Part shown: positions 17,778 to 50,592 of the stretch, piece by piece
Position numbering within the stretch: position 1 is the first letter of the stretch
Layout: every line of letters begins with the position of its first letter
Assembly (NCBI GenBank): GCA_007376265.1
Contig: VMFW01000005.1
Location: 198 to 64,197, forward strand
Length of the DNA stretch: 64,000 nucleotides
Origin: Parcubacteria group bacterium Gr01-1014_20
Lineage (GTDB): Bacteria; Patescibacteriota; Minisyncoccia; UBA6257; 2-01-FULL-56-20
Direction of reading: 5' to 3'
Made by a program: the position numbers and the translations under genes
Notes under the pieces: model-generated
The model's database searches: none
What the model saw: the letters and a program-made list of their open reading frames with translations, nothing else
Told to the model about the DNA's origin: nothing

Positions 17778-17981
17778 AGCTTTTGAGATATTCTTCAACC
17801 TCTCGGTATTTTTCCATGGTGTCGATACCCCTTGAATACTCACCACACTCGTAGCCGTAGAAGTTTTTGCCTTGGTCAATAACGGCGGGAAGAAGTTGTT
17901 TGCCAAGTTCGTAGGGTTGATTTTTTGGGATGTACGACAAAATTTCTTTTTTCAAAATGAAGACGCCTCGCAGGCGGTGGG
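17778..17981 (-). pseudogene. out-of-frame C-terminal part of a sugar nucleotidyltransferase domain, continuing the gmhB-fusion ORF after a frameshift
   Basis: Translation in an alternative frame gives ...FILKKEILSYIPKNQPYELGKQLLPAVIDQGKNFYGYECGEYSRGIDTMEKYREVEEYLKS*. This is a typical NTP-transferase C-terminus and ends exactly at the terminator. Confidence 0.5.
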
Positions 17982-24413: not shown

Positions 24414-25349
24414 CTATTTCAGGCGGCCAAGTTCTTTTTCTTTGCTTAGAAAGTCTACCAGCGCCTGGATTCCCTCTTCGATGCCGGTTTTTGGAGACCA
24501 TCCGATTTTTCTGGCTTCGCTTATGTCAGCTAGAGTAATTTGGGCTTCACCCGAGAGGTTAGGTTTAAAAACCGGATCAACACTAGAGGCTAGTAATTTT
24601 TTTATGACGTTATAAATTTCGAGGATGGAGTTGTTGGTGCCACTCCCAAGATTAAAAACCTTGCCGTCGGTTCTGGGGTCGGTAATACAAAGCAACATAA
24701 AATCGTTGAAGTCTTCGATATACAGGAAGTCTCGCCGCTTGGAACCGTCGCCGTAGATTATGGGTTGTTCGCCTTTGAGGAGTTTAATGATGAAGGCTGG
24801 CATGGATGGAGGAATGGTGCGCCGATAGTCTTGCTTAGAACCGTAGACACTAAAGGGTCGGATGCCGGTTGAAACAACGCCGTGAAACTCGGCGTACTTT
24901 CTTGCAAACAGATTGCCGCAAACCTTACTAACGGCATAAAAACTGTCGGGGGCGACGTTGGCTTCTGGGGTCGGAAAGATATCAATGCCTTCATAAACAG
25001 CGGAAGACTCGGCATTGACAACTTTGCTCACTTTAGCTCGGCGAGCGGCTTCGAATACGTTCGCGGTTCCCACGACGTTGATATCGGCAGTTTCAACTGG
25101 ATCTTCTTGGCAGTCCTCAATGCAGTTTTTGGCCGCTAAGTGAAAAACGGCGTCAACCCCGTGGAATAGAGGGTATATATCTTTGGATCGGATATCGAGT
25201 TTGTGAAAATCGACCCCCTTAGGAATCTGCTCGAAGACACCATAGGACAAGTTATCGATGCCTAAAACTTCGTAGCCGCTACCCAATAACCGATCGGCAA
25301 GGTTCGAACCAATGAACCCGGCGACTCCGGTTACGAGAACCTTTTTCAT
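24414..25349 (-). CDS. NAD-dependent epimerase/dehydratase (UDP-glucose 4-epimerase-like)
   Basis: MKKVLVTGVAGFIGSNL...YAVSK. Confidence 0.7.
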   Translation of the reverse strand: MKKVLVTGVAGFIGSNLADRLLGSGYEVLGIDNLSYGVFEQIPKGVDFHKLDIRSKDIYPLFHGVDAVFHLAAKNCIEDCQEDPVETADINVVGTANVFEAARRAKVSKVVNAESSAVYEGIDIFPTPEANVAPDSFYAVSKVCGNLFARKYAEFHGVVSTGIRPFSVYGSKQDYRRTIPPSMPAFIIKLLKGEQPIIYGDGSKRRDFLYIEDFNDFMLLCITDPRTDGKVFNLGSGTNNSILEIYNVIKKLLASSVDPVFKPNLSGEAQITLADISEARKIGWSPKTGIEEGIQALVDFLSKEKELGRLK

Positions 25350-25395: not shown

Positions 25396-26265
25396 CTACA
25401 AGCGATCATACTTACTCTTTCGGTAGGATAGAAAAAGGGGCATAAGAACCCAGGAAAAGGGCGGGGTCTTTAGGAAGATCCCCAAGATTTTCATTCGGCG
25501 CCAATGAGCTCTAAGCACTTCGATAGTTTTTGAATACTTCTCGCGATCGGTTTTGGAAAACCAAGATTCAACAATATCCAACATTTTCGGAAATTGCTCG
25601 GCGGTGCGAATCAGGTAGTCACTTCGGTAGGAGTCGTTAGTCGTGTGAAGCCGGAGTAGACCAACAACTTTGTCGAGGTAGTAAAATTGGGCACCGTGAT
25701 AGGCAAGATTAATCCAAACATAGTGTTCATCGCAGGCGTACCAGCCCTCTTCGAAAGCGCCGAACTTATCAAAAAACTCTTTTCTCACCAAAACAGTTAG
25801 AACATTAATGAAATTTTGAGGGAGAACTTGCTCGAAAATGTTGCCAGAAAATCGGGGTTGATCGTTTTTGTAAAGAGTAGCGGTGTCGCTCCCGTAAAAA
25901 TAGTGAATCTTAGCGTAGGAAACACCACATTCGGGATGAGCTTCCATGAAGGCAACTTGGTCTTCGATTTTATTTTTTAGAAAAATATTGTCGGCGTCCA
26001 AGAAAGCGACGTACTTACCGGCGGCCTGCCGGATGCCAGCGTTTCTGGCTGAAGCCATTTTCTGATTGGTCTGGAAGATGTATCGGATGCGACGATCTTT
26101 TTCGGCATAGCTTTTTGCGATGTGGGCGGTTGCGTCAGTCGATCCATCATCAACGATAATTAGTTCCCAATTCGAATAAGTTTGGGCGATGACGCTTTCG
26201 ATCGTCTCCCGCAGAAAACCGGCAGCGTTGTAGGCGGGAATAACGATGGAAACCAGAGGTTTCAT
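25396..26265 (-). CDS. glycosyltransferase family 2
   Basis: Track ORF 25396..26397 trimmed to internal start MKPLVSIVIPAYN (26265). The longer form would overlap the upstream gene by ~130 nt. IVDDGSTD...DADN motifs. Confidence 0.7.
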   Translation of the reverse strand: MKPLVSIVIPAYNAAGFLRETIESVIAQTYSNWELIIVDDGSTDATAHIAKSYAEKDRRIRYIFQTNQKMASARNAGIRQAAGKYVAFLDADNIFLKNKIEDQVAFMEAHPECGVSYAKIHYFYGSDTATLYKNDQPRFSGNIFEQVLPQNFINVLTVLVRKEFFDKFGAFEEGWYACDEHYVWINLAYHGAQFYYLDKVVGLLRLHTTNDSYRSDYLIRTAEQFPKMLDIVESWFSKTDREKYSKTIEVLRAHWRRMKILGIFLKTPPFSWVLMPLFLSYRKSKYDRL

Positions 26266-26266
26266 C

Positions 26267-26974
26267 TTATATTTTCTTGTCTTTGATGTCGGACAGCCAG
26301 GCCTCAAGTATTTTAACTTCGCTACCCACCATGGATTTTTCCAGGATTTTCTTGATGATGTCGGGATAGTCGCTCTCGCCTCTAGACTTTTTCGCATAAC
26401 AGACGATATTGGGGAGAAAATTAAACCCGAATTTACTTAAGTTTTTTAGGGCGCCTTCGGCTTTTGAAAGGCCGATCGATTTGGCGAGCGGGATTTTGCT
26501 CTCTAGGTTGTTAGAGAATTTTTCAAACTTGAAGTCATCAAACCCGATTTTACTCAGCACATAGCGATACTTGGTTTCAGACCAAAAATCTTTGTGGTAG
26601 GCCCAAGAAGCTTCGTGGGAGCCAAAAATGTGCCGACCGAGAACAAATTGATCATCCAGAGACGCCTTCACAAATTTCTTGGCAGACTCTTCAAAATCCG
26701 GAGTTTCGACAACTAGAAGTCCCCCAATTTTTAGCCAGCGATGCCATCTCGCAATCAGGAGCAAGGCTTCTTGTCTCGAAAAATGCTCAAGGAGATGGTG
26801 CGACCTAATTTCATCAACAGTATTGGTTTCGTAATCAAGGTCACGGACGTCGGCATAGAGATCGGCTCTGACCTCCTGGGCGGTGTGTTCGCTCGGGGGT
26901 AGGTCTATATTGATATAGCCGGGCAAGTATTTTTCCTGGCAGCCGAGGTGAAGTTTAATTTTTTTTTCTTCCAT
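26267..26974 (-). CDS. class I SAM-dependent methyltransferase
   Basis: 235 aa. LHLGCQEKYLPGYINID...HLLEH pattern (Methyltransf_11/23-like). Confidence 0.55.
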   Translation of the reverse strand: MEEKKIKLHLGCQEKYLPGYINIDLPPSEHTAQEVRADLYADVRDLDYETNTVDEIRSHHLLEHFSRQEALLLIARWHRWLKIGGLLVVETPDFEESAKKFVKASLDDQFVLGRHIFGSHEASWAYHKDFWSETKYRYVLSKIGFDDFKFEKFSNNLESKIPLAKSIGLSKAEGALKNLSKFGFNFLPNIVCYAKKSRGESDYPDIIKKILEKSMVGSEVKILEAWLSDIKDKKI

Positions 26975-26976
26975 GA

Positions 26977-28023
26977 CTACAGTTGTAACCCGAGATGTTT
27001 AAATAGCGACTGAAACCTTTTTTCATAGGTGTGCTCGGAGAGAGTGCGTTTATAACCGGCCTCAGCTATTTTTTCTCTCTCGCTCGCGTGAGTTAGATAA
27101 TATCTTATTTTTTCCTCGAGGTCACCAAGGGACCGGTAAAAGACCATTTCCTCGTTTTCCTCATAGTAACTACCAATATCTTCCGAATAACCGGAGATGG
27201 TAAAGGCCCGACAACCGGCTAGTTCGAAGGGGCGGGCATGGGTGTGGGGGATTGGGTAGTGAAGGTAGGCTCGGAGATTATCGACAATATGAAAGTCTGG
27301 TTTTATGGTGTCGACTGATTTTCTGAAAAGAATTCTACCCAAAACATTTCGATCCGCAAGGCTTCCGCGCGCATTAATGTTCAAATTGATTTTGCTACGA
27401 CTAAAGACTTGGAGCATTTCTTCTTGAGAAACCTTGCCGCCAGGCCATCCGAAACCGAAAGCTTTAACGCTGATGCCGTGGCAAGCTAGGTGTTCGACGA
27501 CCCGACCGCGGCCAGATTTATATTGACCCACAAAACCAACCTCGATGTCTTTTTCAGTTTGGACGGGTTTATAAAGTTTGACGTTACAGGCCCACTGGGA
27601 AAGAAGGACGTTCTTATATCCCGCTTGCCGATACCAGTCTACGGCCTTCGAGTAAGTGGTAACAACTAAATCAAAATAGGGCGCCCAGTTTTTGGAGTAG
27701 TTCCAAAAGCGCCAGTAGTCGTCAGCGAACCAAGCAACCGTTCTTGTTCGACCCCCAGTTTTAATCTTTTCTAAAACCGCCTTGTCTAGCTCGTCGGTGT
27801 ACATAAAGGCGAAAAGCAAGTCGGGTTTTTCTTTATCTACGAGCTCAAGCAACCTTTTGTTGAACTTGTCTAAACCAATTTCCGGAATAACATCAAAGGG
27901 GTATTCAATGACTTCTACCCCCGGCAAGGTCTTTAGGGTGAGGTAAAAATTCGTGTACTCAAAGCTCGGCCTTCTAGTTGAACCGTAGGCGTCGTAGTGA
28001 ATGCCAGTATAGACAATTTTCAT
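26977..28023 (-). CDS. CgeB-like glycosyltransferase (DUF3880 + GT1-like C-terminal domain)
   Basis: 348 aa. VGFVGQYKSGRGRVVEHL...SKINLNIN pattern resembles the spore-maturation CgeB family. Confidence 0.45.
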   Translation of the reverse strand: MKIVYTGIHYDAYGSTRRPSFEYTNFYLTLKTLPGVEVIEYPFDVIPEIGLDKFNKRLLELVDKEKPDLLFAFMYTDELDKAVLEKIKTGGRTRTVAWFADDYWRFWNYSKNWAPYFDLVVTTYSKAVDWYRQAGYKNVLLSQWACNVKLYKPVQTEKDIEVGFVGQYKSGRGRVVEHLACHGISVKAFGFGWPGGKVSQEEMLQVFSRSKINLNINARGSLADRNVLGRILFRKSVDTIKPDFHIVDNLRAYLHYPIPHTHARPFELAGCRAFTISGYSEDIGSYYEENEEMVFYRSLGDLEEKIRYYLTHASEREKIAEAGYKRTLSEHTYEKRFQSLFKHLGLQL

Positions 28024-28024
28024 A

Positions 28025-29122
28025 TTAGAAATATGATTCGAAAATACTTACGAGTCGTTCAGTATGTTTTTCCTTGCTAAACTTTTCTTGGTAATCCTCG
28101 GAATTCAGGAACTTCACTATATTTTCTGTGTAATTCATGTAGGTGTTTTCGTCCATGTTCTTTAGATGATAATCCAACTCCTTAAGATTCTTGAACTTCC
28201 TAAAATCTATAAAACAACTACTCGGAACATAGCTGGCTATGTCTGGCGCCCCAAAGTAGATGGGTACTGAACCGGCAAACAGTGCATCTATGATTTTTTC
28301 GGTTATGTATCCGCCGTAAGTACAATTTTCGAAAGACAGATTAAACTTGTAGTTTTGTAGGGTCTTGAATTTGTTTGTCACCTCCCCTCGATAGCTTACT
28401 TTTATATTCTTGCCGTATTTACCAAAAGTATACCGAACTGGTTTTTGCCAGTCGTGACCATAAAGATCAAACTTTGGATCGTGGGAAAAATACTCAATAA
28501 GCTTGAGTCTTTCCTTGTAGAGCTCAACATTGGTAAAAGTGGGAAGGGGGTGAATCGGGTTCATAATGTACGAATAGAGCCTCTTTAGTTTGTGGATTCT
28601 CTTATTGGCACTAATCAGGCTCAAGTATTTGGGTCGGGCAAAATTTCCCGGCACTATGTCCTCTCTTGTGTAAGATTGAGGGCAAACAAAGGGGTGAAAT
28701 TTGGTTTTGGGAGAAACGGAGTTTGCCGCACCTCCAGCCATGAAGGTATGGTCAAAGTAGGCAGTTTCTTTTTTTAAATTATAAAAGAAGCGGACTGGGT
28801 AAATAGGGCCTTCGATTACCATTAAGACTGCTGGATGAAGACCGGTGTTAATTAGAAGTTCGGTGTCATCCGAAATACAATCATCACGGACAAGAATGGC
28901 TTTGGGCAGTTCACTTCTAAACCTTAGATAAATGTCGGGGGTTAAGAGCTGAATGCCTTTTTTCAAACACTCCTCGTAAAGATAGGGGGTGATCCCGGTG
29001 TGTTCGCCATTCGAGGGACTTTTCTCAAATAGCAGATTCTTTACCCCGAAAGGGTTAGTGCGATAACCAGCGTTATAAACCACTATTTTTTTGTCTTTTA
29101 TTTGCTCGAGAGAAATCTCCAT
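28025..29122 (-). CDS. GT10-family alpha-1,3/4-fucosyltransferase-like glycosyltransferase
   Basis: 365 aa. KFNLSFENCTYGGYITEKIIDALFAGSVPIYFGAPD matches the conserved FENS..GY[VI]TEK motif of GT10 fucosyltransferases. Confidence 0.6.
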   Translation of the reverse strand: MEISLEQIKDKKIVVYNAGYRTNPFGVKNLLFEKSPSNGEHTGITPYLYEECLKKGIQLLTPDIYLRFRSELPKAILVRDDCISDDTELLINTGLHPAVLMVIEGPIYPVRFFYNLKKETAYFDHTFMAGGAANSVSPKTKFHPFVCPQSYTREDIVPGNFARPKYLSLISANKRIHKLKRLYSYIMNPIHPLPTFTNVELYKERLKLIEYFSHDPKFDLYGHDWQKPVRYTFGKYGKNIKVSYRGEVTNKFKTLQNYKFNLSFENCTYGGYITEKIIDALFAGSVPIYFGAPDIASYVPSSCFIDFRKFKNLKELDYHLKNMDENTYMNYTENIVKFLNSEDYQEKFSKEKHTERLVSIFESYF

Positions 29123-29123
29123 A

Positions 29124-30152
29124 TTAAAAATTCATTTTAGAAACAGGATTTTTGTTACGGTCGACAAAGATGATATCGTGGTGGTTTTGGCTAATTTTCT
29201 CTTTGAAATCTAAAATTTTCTTTAAGTATTTTTCGTTCTCAACGTAGAGTTCTTCAGCTTTTCTTTCGCCAGAACTACCGGGGTGCATCCTTCCAAAAGT
29301 GGCTTTGGTGGGTAAGTAGTAGGAAAGATAACCTCGGGTGTTAAAGTTGAAATTAAAATCGGTTAGATGGTTGATCATCCTACTTCCCAGGGGGTATCTG
29401 GGGGCACACTCCAAATAGACGTTTTTGCTCGTACAGGCGCCCTGATCATTAAAGGTCGTGCCAGTTTGGAGCCAATAACTAAACCATTTTTCTTTCCTAG
29501 GGACTTCTCCTTTCGGAAAACTTCTTTTGGTAAAAAATTTGACCCTAAGCTTGGCTGTGGGAGAGAGCATTTTTTTAAAAAGTATTTTTTTCCTCTCGAG
29601 ACTGCCGAAGGCCAAGTCCTTAATTATCATAAATATCTTCTCGACAATATGCTTTAGTGTGTCGAGCGCGGTTTCATGGCCTACGAGGTGAGAATAAGAA
29701 ACGTGTGACTCTTGAAGCAACTGCCCCCCCTCCGACATGCCCCGACTTGATCCCCAGACCAGGGAAATGCTTTTATCGCTGTCGAAAACCTGGATACACT
29801 TCGAGAGCCACTCTCGATCAAGGAATCCATCTTGACCCCCAACGATACAAACATATTCTCCCCTGGCTCGATCAATACCTTTATCGGTGGCGTGCCAAGG
29901 CCCTTCATCTGGTTCGGAACAAACGAGAATGCGTGGGTTATTTTTACTGTATTCGTTCACGATGGTGAGGGTTTGATCGGTAGATGCTCCGTCCATAATA
30001 AGAAGTTCCCAGTTTTCATAGGTTTGACTCAGAACGGTTTCGATGGTTTCAGCAATGTATTTTTCGACATTAAAAACGGGGCAGATAATAGAGACGAGGG
30101 GAAGCGGGGGGTTGCCGTTTTTAGTGTTGGCTTTATTCCTATTGCCAGGCAT
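29124..30152 (-). CDS. glycosyltransferase family 2
   Basis: LVSIICPVFNVEKYIAETIETVLSQTY...MDGASTD. Confidence 0.75.
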   Translation of the reverse strand: MPGNRNKANTKNGNPPLPLVSIICPVFNVEKYIAETIETVLSQTYENWELLIMDGASTDQTLTIVNEYSKNNPRILVCSEPDEGPWHATDKGIDRARGEYVCIVGGQDGFLDREWLSKCIQVFDSDKSISLVWGSSRGMSEGGQLLQESHVSYSHLVGHETALDTLKHIVEKIFMIIKDLAFGSLERKKILFKKMLSPTAKLRVKFFTKRSFPKGEVPRKEKWFSYWLQTGTTFNDQGACTSKNVYLECAPRYPLGSRMINHLTDFNFNFNTRGYLSYYLPTKATFGRMHPGSSGERKAEELYVENEKYLKKILDFKEKISQNHHDIIFVDRNKNPVSKMNF

Positions 30153-30915
30153 AGAGGGTAAGAGTGGAAGCGTTGTAATCGACGTTGTAACCTAGATTCT
30201 TGAGAAACAACTTGAACTCATCGATTGTCATTCTATTTAGATTGTAGTGCCACTCAATAGTCATGGTTCTAATTTTCTTGAAGATATCCCTAGGGGCGGT
30301 GGTTAAAATTTCTTCCTCGGCTCCCTCGCAATCAATTTTCATGAAATCACAAGACTCGATTCGGTTGGATGAAAAAATATCTTCCAGGGTGACGGTTGAA
30401 ACCTCAACTGAAGAGAGTTCTGCTTCGTTACCGTAGCGTTTAAACGAACCTCCGCCAGAGTCACCGGGTCTAAAAAATAATGTCTGTTTTCCCCCTTTTT
30501 GACCTACGGCCGCCTGGAAGGGTTGGATGCGTTTTTCAAGTTTGTTGAGAGCGATGTTGGTTTTTAGCATTTCGAAGTTTCTAGGAAATGGCTCGAAGCT
30601 GAGAACTTTCACGTTCTTAGAGGCCTCCGCGGCTTTGACAGAAAAAACACCAATGTTGGCTCCGATATCGATGACGATTGAATTTTCTTTGATACGGGTT
30701 AATAGGCGATCATAAACCCCGACTCGCCAAATCTCATCGATCACGCGCATTTCGGTAGTATTCGCGTTGATGCAGTAGTTAATGCCGTTTTTCAGTCGCA
30801 AAATGATCTTGCCAACCCCGGAGAGTCCGAGACGATTTTTTAGGTACGCAAACGGGTTTCTATAGAACGATAAAGTAAAAAAAAATTCTTTGGTTAGGCG
30901 AACGATTTTTTCCAT
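30139..30915 (-). CDS. FkbM-family SAM-dependent methyltransferase
   Basis: 258 aa. IVIDIGANIGVFS...MKIDCEGAE motifs characteristic of FkbM. Confidence 0.65.
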   Translation of the reverse strand: MEKIVRLTKEFFFTLSFYRNPFAYLKNRLGLSGVGKIILRLKNGINYCINANTTEMRVIDEIWRVGVYDRLLTRIKENSIVIDIGANIGVFSVKAAEASKNVKVLSFEPFPRNFEMLKTNIALNKLEKRIQPFQAAVGQKGGKQTLFFRPGDSGGGSFKRYGNEAELSSVEVSTVTLEDIFSSNRIESCDFMKIDCEGAEEEILTTAPRDIFKKIRTMTIEWHYNLNRMTIDEFKLFLKNLGYNVDYNASTLTLYAWQ

Positions 30916-31376
30916 TCTTCACGGTTTTGATTTAGACAACGACAGGTTAGCGAGGAAGATAGCGTAGTTTTTAAGATTAAACTTCTCCCTGACAAGATTT
31001 TGGCCCTCCGACGAAACACATCTTCAAAGCCGTAGTCACTACCGACGACGGTAAGCACCGAGGTATTAACCGAGAGGACGATGGCGGGTAAAGAATTTCT
31101 TTCCTTGTTATAACGATAAATCCATTCAGCTACAAAGTGTTGATTATCAGCCGCTGAACCGCCGTTTCCACAAGTAAGAAGGCGGTGATTATTTTTAATA
31201 GCGTCTACAAGAAGGGTGGCTCCATGTTTGATGTCTCTTTTGATGTCTCTCAATATTTCGCTTACTATCATTTCCAAAACTTCCTTGTGTCGAAGGAAAA
31301 CTTTATCAACAATTCCCCCGAAGGTCCGTTCTTCGTCTATACGTTCTCGATAGAACACAAGCGAAGTATAGACCAT
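30894..31376 (-). pseudogene. truncated/frameshifted paralog of gmhA (SIS sedoheptulose-7-P isomerase)
   Basis: The first ~125 aa (LLTCGNGGSAADNQHFVAEWIYRYNKER...GSDYGFEDVF) align with GmhA at 34010..34591. The frame then reads nonsense. Similarity continues briefly in another frame (GQNLVREKFNLKNYAIFLAN) and stops. The C-terminal ~60 aa are missing. Confidence 0.5.
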
Positions 31377-31405: not shown

Positions 31406-32773
31406 ATGGGTACGGTGCAAACTAAATTTTATATCACGCAAGAGCGAATTGCACAGGTCGCGGAGGTCATGTTTCTTGCCGCAATAATGTTTCTCATCGT
31501 ACGCAAGAATGACTATCCGTGGGCCCTCAAGCGTAGTAGCGATATTTTATTCCTACTCTCCGCGATTCTTACTGCCCTCCACCTTACCTTCGCCGTTAGA
31601 TGGTCGTCTTTTTTGCAAACGCATCGAAAGGTGATTGTTGGGTTCTCTCTTATTTTCTCTGGTCTTATACTAGCCTCCATAGTAAGCTACGTCCTTGATG
31701 GTGTACGAATTGATACTGAAGGAATTTTAATGTTTGGTCGATTCTTTGAAGTCGGCGTGGTCGTACTACTTGTAGGGTTTTTTGCCACTCGCAACCCTCA
31801 TTTTTTCAGGAAAGTCGCGATTACGCAGCTTTCTACACTGGTATACTTATGCGCCCTTTTTTCCCAACGCAATCCAAATGTCACAATGGGTCGCTTTGTG
31901 CTCTTCGAAAATCGATCCGATAACGTTTCTTACTATCTCATCGTCAGCCTGAGCCTGATGGTCGTACTTTTTCTCGAGAGGGTAAAACCGTTCAGGAAAT
32001 CTTTTTTTCTTTTTTACCTAGTGGCCATAGGGTTCTCGTCTATTCTACTGTGGACTTTTGTCCGGGCGAGCTGGGTTGGGTTCTCTGCGGCGGCGTTTTT
32101 CACACTTCTTATGTGGATACTTAAAACCAAAGCAGAGAAAGCGAAACGCGTCTTTATTGGTATAGTCCTTATAATTTTGTTGGCTCCTTTGGGATTCCTT
32201 GTTGCGCCACGGATGGTAAGAAACGGGGTAATTGGAAAGTTTTTCCCAGCCATTCAACGTCAGATCCAGGAAGAAGTTGGATTCGAGAAAGCTACGACAC
32301 TGGTTGTTGCTAAAACAGTCCTCGTAGATAAGCCTTCTTTCTCATTCTACGATCCTTTGCGTGTTTTTTTGTGGAAAGAGTATGCCAAAAAAATGATTGA
32401 GAGGCCGATAGGTTTTGGCATACACTTCACCACCTTTACTCGCGCAACATCTCAGTCAACGGTCCAGTGGAAGTTGATAAGTAGTCTTGGGCCACATAAC
32501 ACCATTCTTGAAATCCTAGTCCTCGGCGGATTTTTAGCTCTCTATGGTTTTCTTTATTTGTTTTACCTTGGATTCAAGAACTTACTGCAAGCATTTAAGG
32601 CCGGGAGTGATACTCGATGGTGCCTCTATGTTCTTGCTTCCATCTCTGGGCTAGCTGTTGCCTCATTTTTTGATCACATGATTACATTCCGTATTATGTG
32701 GGTGATGGTTGGCCTCGGAATTTACGCGAAGCATATACCGATAGTTTCTCCCTCGCCGTCAATCACTAGCTGA
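31406..32773 (+). CDS. O-antigen ligase/polymerase-like membrane protein (Wzy_C domain family)
   Basis: 455 aa with ~10-12 TM helices and a central large loop. It is the only plus-strand gene inside the long minus-strand block. Confidence 0.55.
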   Translation: MGTVQTKFYITQERIAQVAEVMFLAAIMFLIVRKNDYPWALKRSSDILFLLSAILTALHLTFAVRWSSFLQTHRKVIVGFSLIFSGLILASIVSYVLDGVRIDTEGILMFGRFFEVGVVVLLVGFFATRNPHFFRKVAITQLSTLVYLCALFSQRNPNVTMGRFVLFENRSDNVSYYLIVSLSLMVVLFLERVKPFRKSFFLFYLVAIGFSSILLWTFVRASWVGFSAAAFFTLLMWILKTKAEKAKRVFIGIVLIILLAPLGFLVAPRMVRNGVIGKFFPAIQRQIQEEVGFEKATTLVVAKTVLVDKPSFSFYDPLRVFLWKEYAKKMIERPIGFGIHFTTFTRATSQSTVQWKLISSLGPHNTILEILVLGGFLALYGFLYLFYLGFKNLLQAFKAGSDTRWCLYVLASISGLAVASFFDHMITFRIMWVMVGLGIYAKHIPIVSPSPSITS

Positions 32774-37162: not shown

Positions 37163-37201
37163 TTTGAATACTAAATAGGATAGGTCATTCTAGAACACGA
37201 A

Positions 37202-43602: not shown

Positions 43603-44355
43603 TTAGGCCTGCTTGCTGAAAAATTTTTGGGCTTTTTCATATCGTTCCGGAGTGCCGATGTCAACCAGCTCTGCTTCGGAGATAAAAGCAAGGCACTTCT
43701 GTCCTAGGATTTTGGGGAAGAGGTCGTACTCAATAGAAAATGCTACTTGGGGGGGTAGAAGACTCAGTATTGTCTTGTTCATGAAATACATACCCGCATT
43801 TACGAAGCCGCCATCGCCTCCAACAACTTTCTCATTAAAACTCAGAATTTGCCCTAGTGGGTTCGTTCTTACAACTCCGTAATCTAATGACTTCCGAGGA
43901 GCGGTAACCGCAATCGAGAGCGTCCCTTCTTTTTCAGTATGAAAAAGATAGAACTTCGGCAAATCCACATCACAGAAGGAGTCACCGTTCATGACTAAGA
44001 AATTTTCACTCCCAACCATTTCGCCAGCCTTCTTCAGCGCACCACCAGTACCAAGGGGGGTTTCTTCTTCTGAGAAAACGAAGTTGTTTGCGCGAGGGTG
44101 ATTTTTGAAATGTTTTACAATTTTCTCTTTCATGTAACCAGTGCTCAAAATAATCCTATTAAAGCCGTGAGCGAAGAGACGATCGACCAGGATATCTATG
44201 AAAACCCGACCTCCTACTTCCGCAAGAACTTTGGGACGATCAGACACAACAGTCCTTAATCTTTTCCCTTCGCCCCCACATAAAATAACCGCATCTATGT
44301 TTTTGAAGGGGTTGGGGATGCTTTCTGTTTTTTTACTCGATATCTGATGGACCAT
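43603..44355 (-). CDS. sugar-1-phosphate nucleotidyltransferase, HddC-like (D-glycero-alpha-D-manno-heptose-1-P guanylyltransferase family)
   Basis: AVILCGGEGKRLRTVVSDRPKVLAEV G-loop. 250 aa. Overlaps the GHMP kinase gene by 23 nt. Confidence 0.65.
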   Translation of the reverse strand: MVHQISSKKTESIPNPFKNIDAVILCGGEGKRLRTVVSDRPKVLAEVGGRVFIDILVDRLFAHGFNRIILSTGYMKEKIVKHFKNHPRANNFVFSEEETPLGTGGALKKAGEMVGSENFLVMNGDSFCDVDLPKFYLFHTEKEGTLSIAVTAPRKSLDYGVVRTNPLGQILSFNEKVVGGDGGFVNAGMYFMNKTILSLLPPQVAFSIEYDLFPKILGQKCLAFISEAELVDIGTPERYEKAQKFFSKQA

Positions 44356-45328
44356 AGTAAATTACTTGACTGCCAATATTTTCGAATTTAACGGGGACGC
44401 AGAGCAAATTCTTTAGCTTTTCCTTAACGGCTGATTGAAACTCTGGCCTTACATAGAAGAGCATAAAACCACCCCCCCCTGCTCCGAGCAACTTCCCTCC
44501 CAGAGCTCCGGCTTGGCGGCCGGCTTCGTAAATTTCATCGATGTGTTTATTGGTAACCTGGGAAGTGAGCTGTCTTTTTATTTTCCAATTTTCGTGCAAG
44601 AGGCGGCCAAAATCGTCAAAGTTGTTTTCGCTTTCGATAATCGAGACGGCTTGATTAACCATGTCTTTCATTGTTTGTAATTCTTTGCTTTTTTCTGGTG
44701 TTCGGCGAATTTGTTCTGCTGCAATGTCGGACGCGTTTCTGGTGAGGCCCGTAAAAAACAAGAGCAGGCAGCTTTCAAGGGACTTGAGCTTTTCTAACTT
44801 CATGGTAACTGGAAAAACTGAAATGCGCTGTGGGCCGCCAAATTCGATCTTGTTGAAACCACCAAAGGCGGTTGCAACCTGATCTTGAGATCCAACATTT
44901 TCCTTGAGGATATCCTGCTCGACGTTGATTGCGTCAAAGGCTAGTTGCCTTTTTGTGACAAGACGACCCTGTAGGGCGTGTAGGGCGTGGATAAGACCGA
45001 CAGTGAATGCTGAACTAGAACCAAGCCCGGAACGAGCGGGCAAATCAGCATCGTGGTGAATTTCTACCCCCTTTTTGACATTTAAAAATTTTAGAGTTTC
45101 CCTTGCTGTTGGGTGTTGAATCTCATCTAGGTGTTTCACTGCTTCTATCCTTGACCAGACTAATCGGTGTTTGTGATCGAAAAACGGCGGGAGATACCTG
45201 CAGGTTATATAGCAGTAATTATTTATAGACGCAGAAAGAACGGCGCCGCCATTATCTTCGTACCAAGCTGGGTAATCGGTGCCCCCTCCAAAGAAAGAGA
45301 TCCTAAATGGTGTACGCGTGATGATCAT
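44333..45328 (-). CDS. GHMP-family kinase, HddA-like (heptose 7-phosphate kinase family)
   Basis: MIITRTPFRISFFGGGTDYP...SGLGSSSA. Paralog of 23395..24381. Confidence 0.65.
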   Translation of the reverse strand: MIITRTPFRISFFGGGTDYPAWYEDNGGAVLSASINNYCYITCRYLPPFFDHKHRLVWSRIEAVKHLDEIQHPTARETLKFLNVKKGVEIHHDADLPARSGLGSSSAFTVGLIHALHALQGRLVTKRQLAFDAINVEQDILKENVGSQDQVATAFGGFNKIEFGGPQRISVFPVTMKLEKLKSLESCLLLFFTGLTRNASDIAAEQIRRTPEKSKELQTMKDMVNQAVSIIESENNFDDFGRLLHENWKIKRQLTSQVTNKHIDEIYEAGRQAGALGGKLLGAGGGGFMLFYVRPEFQSAVKEKLKNLLCVPVKFENIGSQVIYYGPSDIE

Positions 45329-46272
45329 TAAACATTAGAAAACTGATGTCGCCGGACGACTTTATATCCTCGAATAAGCTCGGCGATGCCCTCGTCCAGT
45401 GAGATTTGGGTTTTGAAACCCGTTTTTTCAATCTTGGAATTGTTCACGATGTAATTACGTTTGTCGGGGTCTTTGCCGATTTTAGACTCAATAAAAACAA
45501 AACTTGGTATTTGTTTTTTTATCTCTTCGCAAAGTTCTAATTTGCTCAGATTGGCGTCAGAAAGACCGACGTTGTAGGTTTCGTTTTTCATGGTTTCGAA
45601 ATTTTCCATGGTGTGCATAAAGGCGTTGGCCACATCTCGAACGTGTATATAGTTGCGTTTAAAGTGTGGCTCGAACAAAACCACAGCTCCATCGTTAACT
45701 GCCCGATAAACAAAGTCATTCACTAGAAGATCAAGTCGCATTCGGGGACTAATTCCAAAAACGGTAGCCAGCCTGAGAGTGATTGTGTTTCCAGCCTCAA
45801 GCAGCTCTTTTTCGGCCTGCACTTTGAGTTTGCCATACAAAGAGACGGGATCGAGGGCGCTAGTTTCATCGCAGAAGGCAACTCCTTCGGCCATTCGGCC
45901 GTAACCGCTGTTGGTGTTTGGGAAAATTATTTTCTGTTCTTTTTCTCGAAGGCGCGCAATGGCTTGAATTGCTTCTAAGTTGGTTGTGCGAGCTCCGATA
46001 GGATCTTTATCGCAGCTCGGGGCGCCAACAACGCAGGCAAGGGGGATGATAAAATCCTTGTCTTTGAGGTTTTGTTTTATTAGCTCTTCGTCGCGCGCAT
46101 CCCCACGCACGATAGTGAGGGTTTTAAAGTTACAGACATCAAGGAGGGGGGTTTGATTGTAAATAAAACTATCGATGACGGTAACTTCATGACCTCTACG
46201 CAAAAGCTCTGGAACCAGTATGGATCCAATGTAGCCAGCTCCACCTGTGATAAGAATTTTCCTGGGCGACAT
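45328..46272 (-). CDS. NAD-dependent epimerase/dehydratase
   Basis: KILITGGAGYIGSILV. 314 aa. Confidence 0.65.
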   Translation of the reverse strand: MSPRKILITGGAGYIGSILVPELLRRGHEVTVIDSFIYNQTPLLDVCNFKTLTIVRGDARDEELIKQNLKDKDFIIPLACVVGAPSCDKDPIGARTTNLEAIQAIARLREKEQKIIFPNTNSGYGRMAEGVAFCDETSALDPVSLYGKLKVQAEKELLEAGNTITLRLATVFGISPRMRLDLLVNDFVYRAVNDGAVVLFEPHFKRNYIHVRDVANAFMHTMENFETMKNETYNVGLSDANLSKLELCEEIKKQIPSFVFIESKIGKDPDKRNYIVNNSKIEKTGFKTQISLDEGIAELIRGYKVVRRHQFSNV

Positions 46273-46277
46273 GGTAT

Positions 46278-46796
46278 TTACAAATACTTACCCTGCTCAT
46301 CCCGTTGCGAAACGATCGGATTCTTTACTGGCCACCAGATATTCAGCTTGGGATCGTTCCACTTGTAGGTAAACTGCTTCTCTGGGTTGTAGTAGGTTGA
46401 TTGTTTATAGTGAAAAATCGAAAGGTCGCTTAAAACCAAGTGAGCATTACCGTGTTTTGGGGGCACCAGGACCTGAAGGTGGTTTTCTGATGATAGGAGG
46501 AATGATTGCCACTGCCCAAAGGTTGGAGACGTTCCATCGCAGTTTACGACGACAAAGTAAAAACGCCCGTAAAGGCAGGATATTAGTTTCCAAGTTTCGG
46601 TATCACCGTGAATACCCCTAAGGACATGCTTACTCGAGACAGAAATGTCATCTTGAACAAAGTCGACATTAATACCGGTCTCAGCGTACAGGTTTTTACT
46701 GTAGGTTTGGACGTAATGACCCCGAAAGTCTTCGAAGACTTCCGGCTTAATTGTTATGACTCCCTCGAGTTTAGTTTTAGAAATCTCCATTCTCAT
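46278..46796 (-). CDS. RmlC-like cupin sugar-nucleotide 3,5-epimerase
   Basis: 172 aa. KLEGVITIKPEVFEDFRGHY...RGIHGD pattern of dTDP-4-dehydrorhamnose 3,5-epimerase-like enzymes. Confidence 0.65.
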   Translation of the reverse strand: MRMEISKTKLEGVITIKPEVFEDFRGHYVQTYSKNLYAETGINVDFVQDDISVSSKHVLRGIHGDTETWKLISCLYGRFYFVVVNCDGTSPTFGQWQSFLLSSENHLQVLVPPKHGNAHLVLSDLSIFHYKQSTYYNPEKQFTYKWNDPKLNIWWPVKNPIVSQRDEQGKYL

Positions 46797-47511: not shown

Positions 47512-47523
47512 TAAATTAAAGGC

Positions 47524-48111
47524 TTATCCGAAAGTAACCCACTTGCCACTGCCATAATGGGGATATTTATTCTTTTTATGTTCATACTTTGTAACTTTAT
47601 TTGCGGATTTCTCTTCTCCCCATGCTTTTTTAGTTGGAGTATTAGTTGAAATCCCGTTGTCCTCAATTACGAAAGAGATGGGGAGATTGTTTCGCTCTGC
47701 ATAGTTTACCGCTTCATGGAAAATGCCACCCTCGGCGGCCATATCTCCAACAAACACCCAGACGTGCTCAGTTAATTTTTTTTGCTTTATGGCGAAAGCC
47801 ACTCCGAGCGCAATCGGTGTGTTCCCACCGACAATCCCAGAGGAGTAGAAACGATGTTCGGGGTTACAAACGGTAATACTATTGCCTCGGATGATTTCTT
47901 CACGCAACCAGATTGGACTAACACCGTGCAAGAGAGCATGATAATGACTGCGATGGGTAGAAAAAACCCAATCGTTAGGTTTAATATCCCTGAATATTTC
48001 TATAAGTTGGTCCTCGTTACCATCGGAAAGATGGATGGGGGCTTTAATTTTACCGGTCTCAAACAGAGATGCGATATCTTCTTCGAACTTTATTAGCTCT
48101 TCTTTAGTCAT
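47524..48111 (-). CDS. short TPP-binding E1 alpha-like protein
   Basis: Track ORF 47524..48234 trimmed to internal start MTKEEL (48111). The longer form would overlap the upstream fcl-like gene by 130 nt and begins with low-complexity sequence. HRSHYHAL...GGNTPIALGVAFA...GDMAAEGG TPP-binding pattern. Confidence 0.5.
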   Translation of the reverse strand: MTKEELIKFEEDIASLFETGKIKAPIHLSDGNEDQLIEIFRDIKPNDWVFSTHRSHYHALLHGVSPIWLREEIIRGNSITVCNPEHRFYSSGIVGGNTPIALGVAFAIKQKKLTEHVWVFVGDMAAEGGIFHEAVNYAERNNLPISFVIEDNGISTNTPTKKAWGEEKSANKVTKYEHKKNKYPHYGSGKWVTFG

Positions 48112-49048
48112 AGGCAATAGTTTGCTCGAACCAGTCAATTGTATTCTTGAGTCCAGTTTCAAACGAGGTGCAGGATTTAAACCCGAATTCTCTTTCGGCC
48201 CGGGTGGCGTCGAGCATCCTTCGGGGCTGGCCATCGGGCTTAGACTTGTCCCACCTTACTTCCCCTTGGTAATTCATTATTCTACAAATTAACGCGACAA
48301 GATCTCGAATTGACGTTTCGGTGCCCGACCCCAAGTTAACTGGATCGGGTTTATCGTATTTTTCGCTTGCCAAAATAATCCCCTCGGCTGATTCCTCGAC
48401 GTACAAAAATTCTCGCGTAGGAGTCCCCGTCCCCCAAACTTCAATATAGTCCTTGCCTTGTTTTTTAGCAACGGCCACTTTCCTGATAAGGGCGGGGATG
48501 ACGTGAGAGCTCCTCTCTTCGAAATTGTCGCCTGGGCCATACATATTGACTGGGAAAAGCGTTATGGCATTGAAGTCATACTGTTGCCTATAGGCCTGGG
48601 CTTGAACAAGGAGCATTTTCTTAGCTAGTCCATATGGGGCGTTAGTTTCCTCCGGGTACCCATTCCATAGGTTTTCCTCCTTGAAAGGAACGGGGGTAAA
48701 TTTCGGGTAGGCACAGATAGTGGCAACTCCAACGAATTTCTTAACTCCAGCTTGTCTTGCGGCTTCCATTATTTGTGTCCCCATGATTAAGTTGTCGTAG
48801 AAAAGCTCGCCTGGCTTTTCCCGGTTGAGACCGATGCCTCCAGCCCTGGCAGCGAGATGGATCACAACGTCAATCCCGTTAGTAGCTGCTTTGCAATTTT
48901 CCATCATCCGTAAGTCGCAATCGGAAAAGCGAGGTGCTGTTATGTTTTCAAGCGGAACTTTTCTTTTTTCAACAAGGTTTTTTATTAACCTGGCACCAAG
49001 AAAGCCATGGCCGCCGGTGACTAATATTCTTGCTTTTTTCAGGTCCAT
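48104..49048 (-). CDS. GDP-L-fucose synthase-like 3,5-epimerase/4-reductase (second Fcl/DmhB-family copy)
   Basis: ARILVTGGHGFLGARL...YGLAKK. 314 aa. About 50 percent identical by eye to 37202..38149. Confidence 0.7.
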   Translation of the reverse strand: MDLKKARILVTGGHGFLGARLIKNLVEKRKVPLENITAPRFSDCDLRMMENCKAATNGIDVVIHLAARAGGIGLNREKPGELFYDNLIMGTQIMEAARQAGVKKFVGVATICAYPKFTPVPFKEENLWNGYPEETNAPYGLAKKMLLVQAQAYRQQYDFNAITLFPVNMYGPGDNFEERSSHVIPALIRKVAVAKKQGKDYIEVWGTGTPTREFLYVEESAEGIILASEKYDKPDPVNLGSGTETSIRDLVALICRIMNYQGEVRWDKSKPDGQPRRMLDATRAEREFGFKSCTSFETGLKNTIDWFEQTIAYD

Positions 49049-49122: not shown

Positions 49123-49584
49123 TCACCTAAAACCGCTTATCTTTAGAAAGGTTCTTAGGTAGGGGTCAGAGTTCGCTTTGATCTTACGAAACCATTTGAA
49201 ATCAGAGCTCTGGTCATCTAAGGTTATTTTTACTTTTCGCTTAACCTCGACTTCAAAAACTATCGCAACGACATGCGAAGCAAAACCTTTGAAGTAGCTC
49301 GCTTTGGGATTATAGAAGTGATCGTGAACACCGAGGAATTTCCAATTTTTTCCCGAAACTCCGACTTCTTCTTTTAGTTTTCGCTTTGCAGTTTCAACTA
49401 GGCGTTCCCCTTTTAAAACTCGGCCGCCTGGAAAATACCAAGCGTTGGCTTCGGGATTATTTTTCCTCTTGACAAGCAAGAATTCCTGGTTGTTTTTCAC
49501 AACTAAGTCAACAGTGACGATCGGTAAAACTTGGTGAATCTTTCGATAAAGAGCCGGAGGGATTAATTTCGTAACAGGCTTCAT
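49123..49584 (-). CDS. NUDIX hydrolase (GDP-mannose mannosyl hydrolase Gmm/NudD-like)
   Basis: GGRVLKGERLVETAKRKLKEEVGV NUDIX box. Sits in the classical position between gmd and fcl. Confidence 0.65.
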   Translation of the reverse strand: MKPVTKLIPPALYRKIHQVLPIVTVDLVVKNNQEFLLVKRKNNPEANAWYFPGGRVLKGERLVETAKRKLKEEVGVSGKNWKFLGVHDHFYNPKASYFKGFASHVVAIVFEVEVKRKVKITLDDQSSDFKWFRKIKANSDPYLRTFLKISGFR

Positions 49585-49599: not shown

Positions 49600-50592
49600 T
49601 TAGGAAGTTCGGGCTTCTTTCATATCGGCGTCAACCATAACCTTAACGAGGTCGGCAAATTTTGTTTTGGCTTCCCACCCGAGTTTATCTTTGGCTTTCC
49701 TAGAATCAGCCGCAAGGTTGTCAACTTCCGTCGGCCGATAGTAACGCGAATCGAAATCGACGTAATCTTTCCAGTTCAATCCCGCGTGAGCAAAAGCGGC
49801 CTCTAGAAACTCCTTGACCGAATGAGACTCACCAGTGCCGATCACGAAATCTTCCGGTTTTTCTTGCTGGAGCATAAGCCACATGGCTTCAACGTACTCG
49901 GGGGCGTAACCCCAATCGCGTTTGGCTTCTAAGTTTCCTAGATATAACTTTTTATCTAATCCGGCTTTAATTCTAGCAATGCCACGAGTTATTTTGCGGG
50001 TGACAAACGTCTCTCCTCGACGGGGACTTTCGTGATTAAAAAGGATCCCATTTACCGCAAACAGGTTGTAGGCTTCGCGGTAGTTGACTACTGTGTTGTA
50101 GGCAAAAACTTTGGCAATGGCGTAGGGGCTCCGAGGGTAGAACGGAGTGGTTTCGCTTTGGGGTGGCGGAGTAGCTCCAAACATTTCGGAACTCGATGCC
50201 TGATAGAACCTTACCTTCTTGCTGACGTGCTCTTGATAATCTTTGATCGCTTCGAGCATTCTTAGCGTCCCTAAAGCCGTGATGTTGGCGGTATACTCGG
50301 GGATATCAAAAGAAACCCTGACGTGGGATTGGGCTCCGAGGTTATACACCTCGTCTGGTTGAATTTTGTAAAGAAGCTTCCGGATCGTGTTAGCGTCGGC
50401 GAGATCGCCGTGGTGCAAAATTAGCCGTTTGGAGACTTCGTGGGGATCTTGATAGATGTGGTTGATTCGACCCGTGTTGAAGGTGGAGGCACGTCGAATG
50501 ACGCCATGGACTTCATACCCCTTTGAAAGAAGTAGCTCAGCTAGATAGGAACCGTCCTGGCCAGTTATTCCCGTAATAAGGGCTTTAAGCAT
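49600..50592 (-). CDS. gmd: GDP-mannose 4,6-dehydratase family (Gmd/DmhA)
   Basis: [34 protein letters not shown]...YAIAKVFA. 330 aa. Confidence 0.85.

Follow-up and report, generated by a model that had tools for sequence, protein, structure and literature searches.

A GT10-family glycosyltransferase of an uncharacterised clade in a Parcubacteria surface-glycan locus with a predicted GDP-L-fucose pathway

The window analysed here, a stretch of 64,000 nucleotides, is part of the MAG "Parcubacteria group bacterium Gr01-1014_20" (uncultured, groundwater), in which the protein under study is annotated as hypothetical. On both sides, its open reading frame (Table 1) is bounded by a stop codon, a single nucleotide, and an ATG, the two neighbors being a GT2 gene upstream and a glycosyltransferase gene downstream. 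The frame is confirmed as a genuine gene in a surface-glycan gene cluster. A scan for promoters and terminators across 24–36 kb gave counts within about 1 standard deviation of those in shuffled controls.

The surrounding cassette recurs in related loci, which are denoted by L numbers. The upstream GT2 gene adjoins the GT10 gene in L001, L002, L004, L005, L007, and L014, the downstream Glyco_trans_1_2 gene keeps its position in L001–L005, L007, and L014, and the FkbM/RfbT-like gene, a candidate sugar O-methyltransferase, is kept in L001, L002, L005, L007, and L014. The downstream end of the cassette (25396..26974) is kept in L001, L003, L004, and L005. Apart from the GT10 gene, the locus encodes six GT2, two GT4, and one GT1_2 glycosyltransferases, together with genes of the kind needed for glycan assembly (Table 1).

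Table 1. Features of the locus, with positions in the window or, for the donor site, residues of the GT10 protein
Feature	Position	Strand	Remarks
GT10-family glycosyltransferase gene	28025..29122	minus	ATG start, 365 aa
C-domain GDP-sugar site, GT10 protein	R205, K251, E265, N266, Y272, E275, K276, D279		conservation in 58 homologs
GT2 glycosyltransferase	29124..30152	minus	directly upstream of GT10; PF00535 89.4 bits
FkbM/RfbT-like methyltransferase	30139..30915	minus	PF05050 81.8 bits, PF05575 35.7 bits
Glyco_trans_1_2 (GT-B, CgeB-like)	26977..28023	minus	directly downstream of GT10; PF13524 99.1 bits
Methyltransf_11-like protein	26267-26974	minus	Pfam; downstream cassette end
GT2	25396-26397	minus	Pfam; downstream cassette end
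Gmd	49600..50592	minus	TIGR01472 539.7 bits (cut-off 415)
NUDIX hydrolase, Gmm-like	49123..49584	minus	PF00293
Fcl1 (GDP-L-fucose synthase type)	48104..49048	minus	reductase triad and epimerase Cys/His dyad
Candidate GDP-heptose module	43603..46796	minus	four genes
Cupin 3,5-epimerase	46278-46796	minus	best PDB matches C. jejuni GDP-4-keto-heptose epimerases
Cj1427-like SDR	45328-46272	minus	361.9 bits to PDB 6vo6
GHMP kinase	44333-45328	minus	candidate GDP-heptose module
NTP-transferase	43603-44355	minus	candidate GDP-heptose module
Fcl2 (Fcl-like SDR)	37202-38149	minus	Ala at 109, no His at 179
TylCIII-type NDP-hexose C-methyltransferase	35897-37162	minus	beside Fcl2
Initiating phosphoglycosyl transferase	10468-11802	plus	Pfam PF02397
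Wzx-type flippase	13581-15059	plus	Pfam PF01943
Wzy_C-domain protein	31406-32773	plus	Pfam PF04932
Wzy_C-domain protein	51278-52885	minus	Pfam PF04932

The assignment of the protein to the GT10 family, made in the original prediction, is supported by its C-terminal domain, its donor motif, and its fold. Residues 205–332 match PF00852, the GT10 C-terminal domain, with 67.7 bits (E 1.3e-18); the gathering threshold is 23.9 bits, and the match is therefore far above chance. Helicobacter pylori FucT reaches a similar 71.4 bits, and the profile is matched by 56 of the 58 members of the clade. The motif FENCTYGGYITEK spans residues 264–276 (28333..28295 in the window). Both phmmer and a profile comparison with 2nzw align its N266, Y272, E275, and K276 with N240, Y246, E249, and K250 of the H. 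pylori enzyme (numbering of 2nzw verified). Within the clade, these positions hold N in 54, Y in 45, E in 50, and K in 50 of the 58 homologs, and R205 is invariant (58/58). R205 lies at profile position 21 of PF00852 and H. pylori R195 at about position 20, a bridge made via the profile and not by superposition, and both proteins carry an Arg ahead of the first C-domain helix. R205 would thus be the counterpart of the diphosphate-binding Arg (R195 in H. pylori, R202 in FUT9). In FUT9, the donor-site motif is represented by N246 and K256; the functional roles of these two residues, of R202, and of E137 are described in PMC12717137.

The AF2 model of the protein (pLDDT 96.1) has a GT-B fold, shared with H. 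pylori FucT/FutA (2NZW/2NZX/2NZY), which is the best Foldseek match. The best PDB matches (2nzx, 8d0w, 2nzw, 5zoi, and 7yro) have E values from 1.6e-9 to 1e-7 and a probability of 1.00, at TM-scores of only about 0.4–0.55 and with GT4 enzymes close behind the GT10 structures. Eukaryotic GT10 enzymes, namely human FUT9 (8D0O-8D0X), mango FUT13 (7YRO), and Arabidopsis FUT11 (9S6A), are neighbors in both sequence and fold. Identity to characterized GT10 enzymes is 17–19%, and the alignable sequence comprises only some 100 C-domain residues. In the case of H. pylori FucT, the alignable part covers its residues 218–321 (44% identity in hhalign across 78 columns) and shows the common motif K-x6-YKF-x3-FEN-x4-GY(V/I)TEK-x2-D-x7-P-x-Y-x-G, whereas overall identity is only 17–18%. 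The window protein further differs from the H. pylori enzyme, whose acceptor is the LacNAc of LPS, by an insertion of, on our reading, about 25 residues that separates the S-x-N motif (171–173) from R205 and by lacking the C-terminal heptad repeats and the amphipathic membrane tail.

The N-terminal domain (approximately residues 1–160) is a new acceptor domain within an uncharacterised GT10 clade. At E ≤ 0.1, neither PF17039, the eukaryotic type, nor PF18025, the type of H. pylori, is matched by any of the 58 members. These two families already differ from each other, and the N-domain family is therefore not a strict criterion for GT10 membership. The eukaryotic enzymes that carry PF17039 reside in the Golgi as disulfide-bonded type II membrane proteins. 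Of the alignment with the H. pylori enzyme that had been proposed earlier, the donor-site part held and the N-terminal part did not: phmmer, a profile of the 58 sequences run against the PDB, and local hhalign aligned the C-domain core only. A forced-global hhalign alignment upstream of that core had near-zero confidence and was discarded, and a search of a large protein database with H. pylori FucT did not yield the diversity needed for a bridging profile, all 120 matches listed being H. pylori variants 86–93% identical. E104 is the invariant Glu of the N-domain among the 58 homologs and probably the catalytic base, a role that would correspond to that of E95 in H. pylori FucT, E137 in FUT9, and E158 in AtFUT11; we infer this role, since the domain is without a match to known GT10 N-domain families. 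An E-(S/G)-P-like motif at the presumed catalytic Glu is common to the window protein and the eukaryotic enzymes, in which we take its counterpart to be the "ESP" motif.

The view that such enzymes are uncommon in bacteria proved overstated. Among species-representative genomes, 462 stretches encode one GT10 peptide pattern, and the 80 that were retained come from well over ten phyla. A phmmer search against 1.84 billion cluster representatives, eukaryotic sequences included, gave at least 10,001 matches at E ≤ 1e-3; a limit of 1e-10 left 2,484 of them, and one of 1e-30 left 119.

The genes that had been read from the sequence as a Gmd-like dehydratase and a pair of Fcl-like reductases are indeed present, 8–21 kb from the GT10 gene and on the same strand; gmd and fcl1 lie 19–21 kb away, and heptose-type and other sugar genes are closer. 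Judged by its scores, the window Gmd is a canonical GDP-mannose dehydratase: it passes the cut-off of its equivalog model, shares 55% identity with the E. coli enzyme, and scores 494.7 bits against A. thaliana GMD (1n7g), as opposed to only 111 bits against 7us5, the C. jejuni GDP-heptose 4,6-dehydratase. Fcl1 scores 199–209 bits against solved GDP-fucose synthases and 271 bits on the NCBIfam Fcl model NF047922, below its cut-off of 500. In an alignment with E. coli Fcl, its residues at positions 107, 109, 136, 140, and 179 are T, C, Y, K, and H, and so it keeps the GMER residues whose roles in reduction and epimerization (S/T107, Y136, and K140; the C109/H179 dyad) are described in PMC7949155 and PMC3539893. 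The NUDIX protein is 34% identical to E. coli Gmm, with 75.7 bits on the NCBIfam Gmm model, under the cut-off of 146.

This gmd-nudix-fcl trio resembles the E. coli gmd-fcl-gmm genes. As in the colanic-acid block gmd-fcl-gmm-wcaI of E. coli, dehydratase, synthase, NUDIX protein, and transferase are clustered in a Wzx/Wzy locus; the gene order differs, the transferase is of family GT10 and not GT4 or GT2, and it lies 19 kb from fcl, whereas the genes are contiguous in L006 and L008. A ManB/ManC-type gene or phosphomannomutase for GDP-mannose supply was not found within the window, in which two short NTP-transferases (12852-13553 and 43603-44355) give sub-threshold matches to a mannose-1-P guanylyltransferase model.

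Other genes of the locus resemble those for GDP-heptose. The cupin of the candidate module scores 129 bits against the C. jejuni GDP-4-keto-heptose epimerases versus 115 bits for dTDP RmlC, and the structure matched by its SDR, 6vo6, is, judged by the name of the deposited molecule, presumably C. jejuni Cj1427, the GDP-heptose C4-dehydrogenase. Fcl2 scores 140 bits against the C. jejuni C4 reductases and, like them, lacks the Cys109/His179 epimerase dyad, because of which it looks reductase-type. With the Cj1427-like dehydrogenase, the cupin epimerase, and Fcl2, the locus seems, from sequence likeness, able to modify a GDP-heptose. Set against the C. jejuni capsular enzymes (Cj1427, Cj1430/MlghB/DdahB, and Cj1428/MlghC/DdahC), the window has a close 6vo6 homolog, a cupin, and a dyad-less Fcl, all of them genes of the neighborhood and not the GT10 gene itself, and it has no heptose 4,6-dehydratase.

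The sole match to 7us5 in the window is the canonical Gmd, and none of three further SDRs compared with solved structures is like a heptose 4,6-dehydratase: 24414-25349 resembles a UDP-hexose/uronate 4-epimerase, 40802-41863 resembles an enzyme of the UDP-GlcA-decarboxylase type, and the one starting at 45328 is Cj1427-like. Every heptose-pathway match in the window falls below its curated cut-off (GmhA-like, 213 versus 276; HddC-like, 136 versus 300; two HddA-like genes, 154 versus 600; GmhB-like, 146 versus 178). These heptose-like modules include a HAD/NTP-transferase gene that is both fused and frame-shifted, as well as a truncated SIS gene. The locus also holds a transaldolase and a split transketolase.

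Gmd lies within 10 kb of GT10 in only 13 of 85 related loci. In six of these, all from Patescibacteria (L006, L008, L009, L011, L012, and L013), the GT10 protein is 43–48% identical to that of the window, and a Gmd 73–83% identical to the window's is encoded 1–5 kb upstream of it. L006 and L008 have the contiguous order gmd-nudix-fcl-GT10; the Fcl encoded in L006 shares 58% identity with that of E. coli. Six distant homologs from other lineages likewise have Gmd within 10 kb, without cupin, GHMP, or GmhA genes; Fcl is also present in five of them (L038, L041, L053, L055, and L070), L067 having Gmd only, and in L038 the order on one strand is gmd-fcl-FnlA/C/B-like-GT2-GT10. In a neighbor-joining tree (calculated without support values), the gmd-linked GT10 proteins nest in the window protein's Patescibacteria clade, so that the idea of a separate paralog family was rejected. 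Paralogs within one genome do exist, L001 carrying two GT10 copies.

Taken together, GDP-L-fucose appears to be the best-supported donor, because Gmd and Fcl look canonical, GT10 is linked to gmd/fcl in relatives, and the heptose-like genes form separate modules in which no heptose 4,6-dehydratase was found. The reading that we favor, and regard as reasonably probable, is that the GT10 protein is an inverting α-L-fucosyltransferase using GDP-L-fucose made by the locus, for a surface glycan. In the mechanism that we infer, a soluble, cytoplasmic GT-B enzyme would bind GDP-β-L-fucose in its C-domain, with R205 and K276 contacting the diphosphate and N266, Y272, and E275 surrounding sugar and nucleotide, while the N-domain Glu (probably E104) would deprotonate the acceptor hydroxyl. 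Fucose would then pass, with inversion, to the undecaprenyl-phosphate-linked repeat unit under construction. Gmd and Fcl, with the Gmm-like NUDIX protein, would supply the donor from within the same 45-kb locus. The GT2, GT1_2, and methyltransferases of the cassette would build and decorate the repeat unit carrying this fucose, which Wzx would then flip and the Wzy_C-domain proteins would process further.

GT2 and GT4 enzymes can be fucosyltransferases too, as E. coli WcaE and WcaI are, so that the GDP-fucose may be used by a transferase other than GT10. It is conceivable, if somewhat unlikely, that the GT10 protein transfers another GDP-β-L-sugar made by the locus, this being the weaker form in which the originally predicted non-fucose donor survives. 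The sugar could be an L-configured D-glycero-heptose, made via the Cj1427-like dehydrogenase, the cupin 3,5-epimerase, and the reductase-type Fcl2, or a 3-C-methyl-6-deoxy-L-hexose, to which the TylCIII-type C-methyltransferase and Fcl2 would convert the Gmd product; a route to GDP-L-virenose through Gmd, TylCIII, and GMER has been proposed (PMC3539893). In the gmd-linked relatives, the other flank of GT10 holds a cupin epimerase and/or a Cj1427-like SDR, with which GT10 directly abuts in L008–L013, and because of this the adjacency of GT10 and gmd does not separate fucose from L-heptose. A C-methyltransferase lies within 10 kb of GT10 in L002, L005, L007, L012, and L013, and its pairing with Fcl2 is kept in L002 and L005. 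H. pylori FucT accepts fucose that carries large modifications at C6. Against such a donor stand the established use of GDP-fucose by all characterized GT10 enzymes (PMC12717137), the homologs from other phyla that pair with gmd/fcl without heptose or C-methyl genes, the absence of a C-methyltransferase within 10 kb of GT10 in L006 and L008, and the other glycosyltransferases of the locus, which could take these sugars.

We consider it very unlikely that the GT10 fold here serves a non-fucosyl or non-glycan role, for example in protein glycosylation as for FUT10/11 (POFUT3/4), or that the enzyme is dead. Beyond the unmatched N-domain, two points favor such a role: protein O-fucosyltransferases have recently been reported in the GT10 family (PMC11949838), and Wzy_C-domain proteins can also be O-oligosaccharyltransferases. 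The conservation of the donor-site residues and the invariant Glu argue against it, as does the translational coupling of the gene inside a cassette of glycosyltransferases and methyltransferases, and protein O-fucosylation would be fucosyl transfer all the same.

Least probable is the original prediction's 6-deoxy-heptose route, in which the Gmd-like enzyme dehydrates GDP-manno-heptose and GT10 moves a GDP-6-deoxy-heptose, e.g., 6-deoxy-L-galacto-heptose (the heptose homolog of fucose): the heptose-like genes and the overlap of the C. jejuni heptose dehydratase and H. pylori Gmd in GDP-mannose substrate range (PMC7949155) speak for it, and the canonical Gmd within its trio, the Fcl1 residues, the SDR comparisons, and the separate, sub-cut-off, and partly disrupted modules, which had been taken for heptose-specific upstream enzymes, speak against it.

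An α-L-fucosyltransferase would be only a modest surprise here, the transferase and the donor pathway next to it both being typical of their families. With its new acceptor domain, the clade may offer a fucosylation tool of new acceptor specificity. It is rather unlikely that this Patescibacteria clade includes the first natural GT10 enzymes with a donor other than GDP-fucose (GDP-β-L-heptose or a C-methylated 6-deoxy-L-hexose); if it did, an episymbiotic CPR bacterium could use the resulting exotic surface glycan in the interaction with its host. The product of the 45-kb locus is probably a glycan that contains heptose and is both fucosylated and methylated. Since Parcubacteria/CPR bacteria presumably live on the surface of host cells, the locus offers a reasonable lead on host recognition.

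The GT10 protein is encoded by an ATG-initiated ORF of 365 aa on the minus strand, exactly at the coordinates of the original prediction (28025–29122). Its ATG follows the stop codon of the preceding GT2 gene after a single base, and the same spacing occurs between its 3′ end and the next glycosyltransferase gene; because of this 1-base spacing on both sides, we regard the gene as a translationally coupled operon member. In GenBank, the protein (TSC82473.1) is annotated as “hypothetical protein.”

The protein is a bona fide, divergent GT10-family enzyme, in agreement with the original assignment. The GT10 C-terminal domain (PF00852) covers residues 205–332 with 67.7 bits and E = 1.3e-18 (Pfam cut-off, 23.9), compared with 71.4 bits for H. 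pylori FucT. Approximately 80–100 residues of the C-domain align to H. pylori FucT (structure 2nzw) by each of three methods (phmmer, a profile of 58 sequences, and hhalign), and identity is 44% in the core of the hhalign alignment. The chain sequence and numbering of 2nzw were checked by PDB search, and its landmarks are E95 in YTGE, R195 in PIRNAFY, N240 in FEN, and Y246, E249, and K250 in GYVTEK. The donor-site residues are kept: within residues 264–276 (FENCTYGGYITEK), N266, Y272, E275, and K276 correspond to N240, Y246, E249, and K250 of 2nzw. R205 is taken to be the diphosphate-binding arginine because it is invariant (58/58 homologs) and occupies PF00852 profile position 21, close to H. 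pylori R195 (approximately position 20). In FUT9, E137 is the base, R202 and K256 contact the diphosphate, and N246 is also counted among the corresponding residues (PMC12717137). AlphaFold2 modeled the protein from the family alignment with very high confidence (pLDDT 96.1, pTM 0.92). When Foldseek compared this model with solved structures, H. pylori FucT, human FUT9, mango FUT13, and Arabidopsis FUT11 came out on top (E = 1.6e-9 to about 1e-6), with modest TM-scores of 0.4–0.55 and with GT4 enzymes ranking shortly after the GT10 structures.

The N-terminal (acceptor) domain matched neither PF17039 (eukaryotic GT10) nor PF18025 (H. pylori) in any of the 58 members, and no sequence method tried aligned it to H. 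pylori FucT. Across these 58 homologs, the clade has an invariant glutamate, E104, followed by a near-invariant proline, P106. In the AlphaFold2 model, E104 lies three residues past an N-domain β-strand, which is the expected place for a GT-B catalytic base, and E104 is thus a candidate for this role.

GT10-domain proteins are not rare: matching cluster representatives number at least 10,001 at E ≤ 1e-3, of which 119 reach E ≤ 1e-30, and in species-representative genomes 462 genomic stretches matched a single peptide pattern. The nearest relatives are 89% and 79% identical, and all others are at most 51% identical. The former is found in Hainich groundwater 0.1-µm-fraction assemblies and one more NCBI MAG assembly; the latter is known from one sequencing-run assembly only.

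Most likely, the GT10 protein is an α-L-fucosyltransferase that is fed by canonical Gmd/Fcl and acts on the lipid-linked repeat unit of a Parcubacteria surface glycan. The window Gmd scores 539.7 bits against a curated equivalog cut-off of 415 and shares 55% identity with E. coli Gmd. Next come a NUDIX protein (34% identity to E. coli Gmm) and then Fcl1; alignment with E. coli Fcl shows both the reductase triad and the epimerase Cys/His dyad intact in Fcl1 (T(S)107, C109, Y136, K140, and H179; roles according to PMC7949155 and PMC3539893). The E. coli colanic-acid gmd-fcl-gmm block has the same gene content and also adjoins fucosyltransferases. Among the other window SDR genes compared with solved structures, no heptose dehydratase-like enzyme was found. 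The original prediction is confirmed as an observation and partly supported in its interpretation: it stands as regards the GT10 enzyme, whereas its placement of Gmd and Fcl in a heptose pathway is not supported for this Gmd and Fcl1.

Gene context was compared in 79 loci from species-representative genomes and six from metagenome look-ups (L-numbered loci encoding GT10 homologs), queried with the window sugar-pathway proteins. The closest homologs (43–50% identical) are all from Patescibacteria and show two layouts, one being the window cassette. In the second (L006, L008, L009, L011, L012, and L013), the GT10 gene lies 1–5 kb downstream of a Gmd 73–83% identical to that of the window; the order in L006 and L008 is gmd-nudix-fcl-GT10, and the Fcl of L006 shares 58% identity with E. 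coli Fcl and retains every catalytic residue. These gmd-linked GT10s nest within the clade of the window protein in a neighbor-joining tree. More distant homologs (30–47% identical over the matched part) have Gmd and Fcl within 10 kb, without heptose-type genes, in one Coriobacteriia, one Chitinophagales, one Ohtaekwangia, and two Parcubacteria/Paceibacterota genomes; in a sixth such locus, Gmd is present alone. Locus L038, from the Coriobacteriia genome, carries on one strand and in this order gmd-fcl, FnlA/FnlC/FnlB-like genes, a GT2 gene, and the GT10 homolog; the Fnl-like genes represent the UDP-L-FucNAc route, placing two different 6-deoxy-L-galacto sugars in a single operon. Overall, Gmd occurs within 10 kb of the GT10 homolog in 13 of the 85 loci, suggesting that it is the most general partner of the clade. 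L010, whose contig begins at the GT10 gene, is the sole locus with a cupin or Cj1427-like gene in which Gmd was not detected.

Coordinates of features in the window and in related loci
Feature	Location	Coordinates	Strand	Length
HAD phosphatase/NTP-transferase ORF	window	17782-18857	-	
Second weak SIS ORF	window	18827-19441		
Transaldolase	window	19469-20197		
GT2	window	25396-26397	-	333 aa
Methyltransferase	window	26267-26974	-	
GT10	window	28025-29122	-	365 aa
SIS-domain ORF	window	30894-31376	-	160 aa
Wzy_C protein	window	31406-32773	+	
Full-length GmhA-like gene	window	34010-34591		
Fcl2/C-methyltransferase region	window	35897-38149	-	
Fcl2	window	37202-38149	-	
ORF, no Pfam match	window	39832-40791	-	319 aa
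Split transketolase	window	41847-43510		
Cj1427-like SDR	window	45328-46272	-	
SDR + cupin pair	window	45328-46796	-	
TPP-dependent pair	window	46960-48234	-	
Fcl1	window	48104-49048	-	
Gmd	window	49600-50592	-	
ORF, no Pfam match	window	50659-51294	-	211 aa
Wzy_C protein	window	51278-52885	-	
Second GT module	L001	8703-11848		
Second GT module	L003	4182-7327		
Unannotated gene	L002	218-1177		
Unannotated gene	L006	5795-6430		
Radical SAM enzyme	L008	12144-13655	+	
gmd-to-GT10 operon	L038	3694-11161	+	

One large glycan locus occupies the window between about 8.5 and 52.9 kb, nearly all on the minus strand. It encodes an initiating phosphoglycosyl transferase, a Wzx flippase, two Wzy_C-domain proteins, glycosyltransferases (six GT2, two GT4, one Glyco_trans_1_2, and one GT10), several methyltransferases, and an unusually rich nucleotide-sugar gene set. 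The host lineage is generally thought to lack an outer membrane; the two Wzy_C (O-antigen ligase/polymerase) proteins may comprise a polymerase plus either a ligase or an O-oligosaccharyltransferase. The GT10 cassette (FkbM-methyltransferase, GT2, GT10, GT1_2, methyltransferase, GT2) is kept in L001–L005, L007, and L014. Its GT2 ORF at 25396 probably starts at an internal ATG, because its first 131 nt overlap the methyltransferase ORF before it and its L001 ortholog is called at 289 aa. The 89% relative has a second GT1_2-GT10(361 aa)-GT2 module (seen in L001 and L003), which the window lacks; the second GT10 is just 44% identical to the first, which points to gain or loss of GT triplets as modules between close strains. 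Two window ORFs have no Pfam match, and equal-length unannotated genes, compared by length and position only, occupy matching positions in L002 and L006 (in L006, between the Wzy_C protein and gmd).

The locus also looks able to modify GDP-heptose. The SDR at 45328-46272 scores 361.9 bits to PDB 6vo6, deposited as “putative sugar-nucleotide epimerase/dehydratease,” which we take to be C. jejuni Cj1427, a GDP-heptose C4-dehydrogenase, and the best solved relatives of the adjacent cupin are C. jejuni GDP-4-keto-heptose 3,5-epimerases. This pair, with 75–82% identity in related Patescibacteria loci, looks like Campylobacter-type heptose modification in a CPR genome. In Fcl2, as in C. jejuni C4 reductases, the epimerase dyad is lost: A replaces C109, and H179 is gone. 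The locus further contains GHMP-kinase/NTP-transferase pairs, a split transketolase, a transaldolase, and GmhA- and GmhB-like genes, although every heptose-specific match falls under its curated cut-off. A small TPP-dependent E1-like α/β pair lies between fcl and the cupin epimerase, and the pair also occurs in L006; together with the transketolase and transaldolase, it could supply sedoheptulose-7-P or add a two-carbon branch onto a sugar. The GmhB-like HAD phosphatase ORF runs on into an NTP-transferase without its first ~36 residues, with a frame change near 17990, reflecting either a pseudogene formed by fusion and frameshift or an error in the assembly; the two genes are separate and intact in L005. 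The 160-aa SIS-domain ORF matches just the first ~115 positions of GmhA models and looks truncated. In the Paceibacterota locus L008, a B12-binding radical SAM enzyme directly 3′ of the Cj1427-like gene possibly provides a further sugar-modifying step.

Beside Fcl2 lies its partner, a TylCIII-type NDP-hexose C-methyltransferase; an SDR and an aldo-keto reductase come next. The Fcl2/C-methyltransferase pair is kept in L002 and L005. Gmd, a TylCIII-type C-methyltransferase, and an Fcl-type enzyme form a proposed route to GDP-L-virenose (PMC3539893), and the region suggests synthesis of a virenose-like, C-methylated deoxy sugar.

Because of these heptose and C-methyl genes, the cupin and Cj1427-like genes that flank the GT10 gene on the side away from gmd in the gmd-linked relatives, and the high tolerance of H. 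pylori FucT to donor changes at fucose C6 (bioRxiv 10.1101/2022.09.01.506123), a non-fucose GDP-β-L-sugar donor is a possible, though unlikely, alternative on sequence grounds. The GDP-heptose route here would yield a 6-hydroxy L-configured heptose rather than a 6-deoxy-heptose, and the 6-deoxy-heptose of the original prediction is a very improbable donor. For the GT10 protein, most likely an α-L-fucosyltransferase, the main points of note are its host lineage, an N-domain outside the recognized families, and the unusual sugar chemistry nearby.
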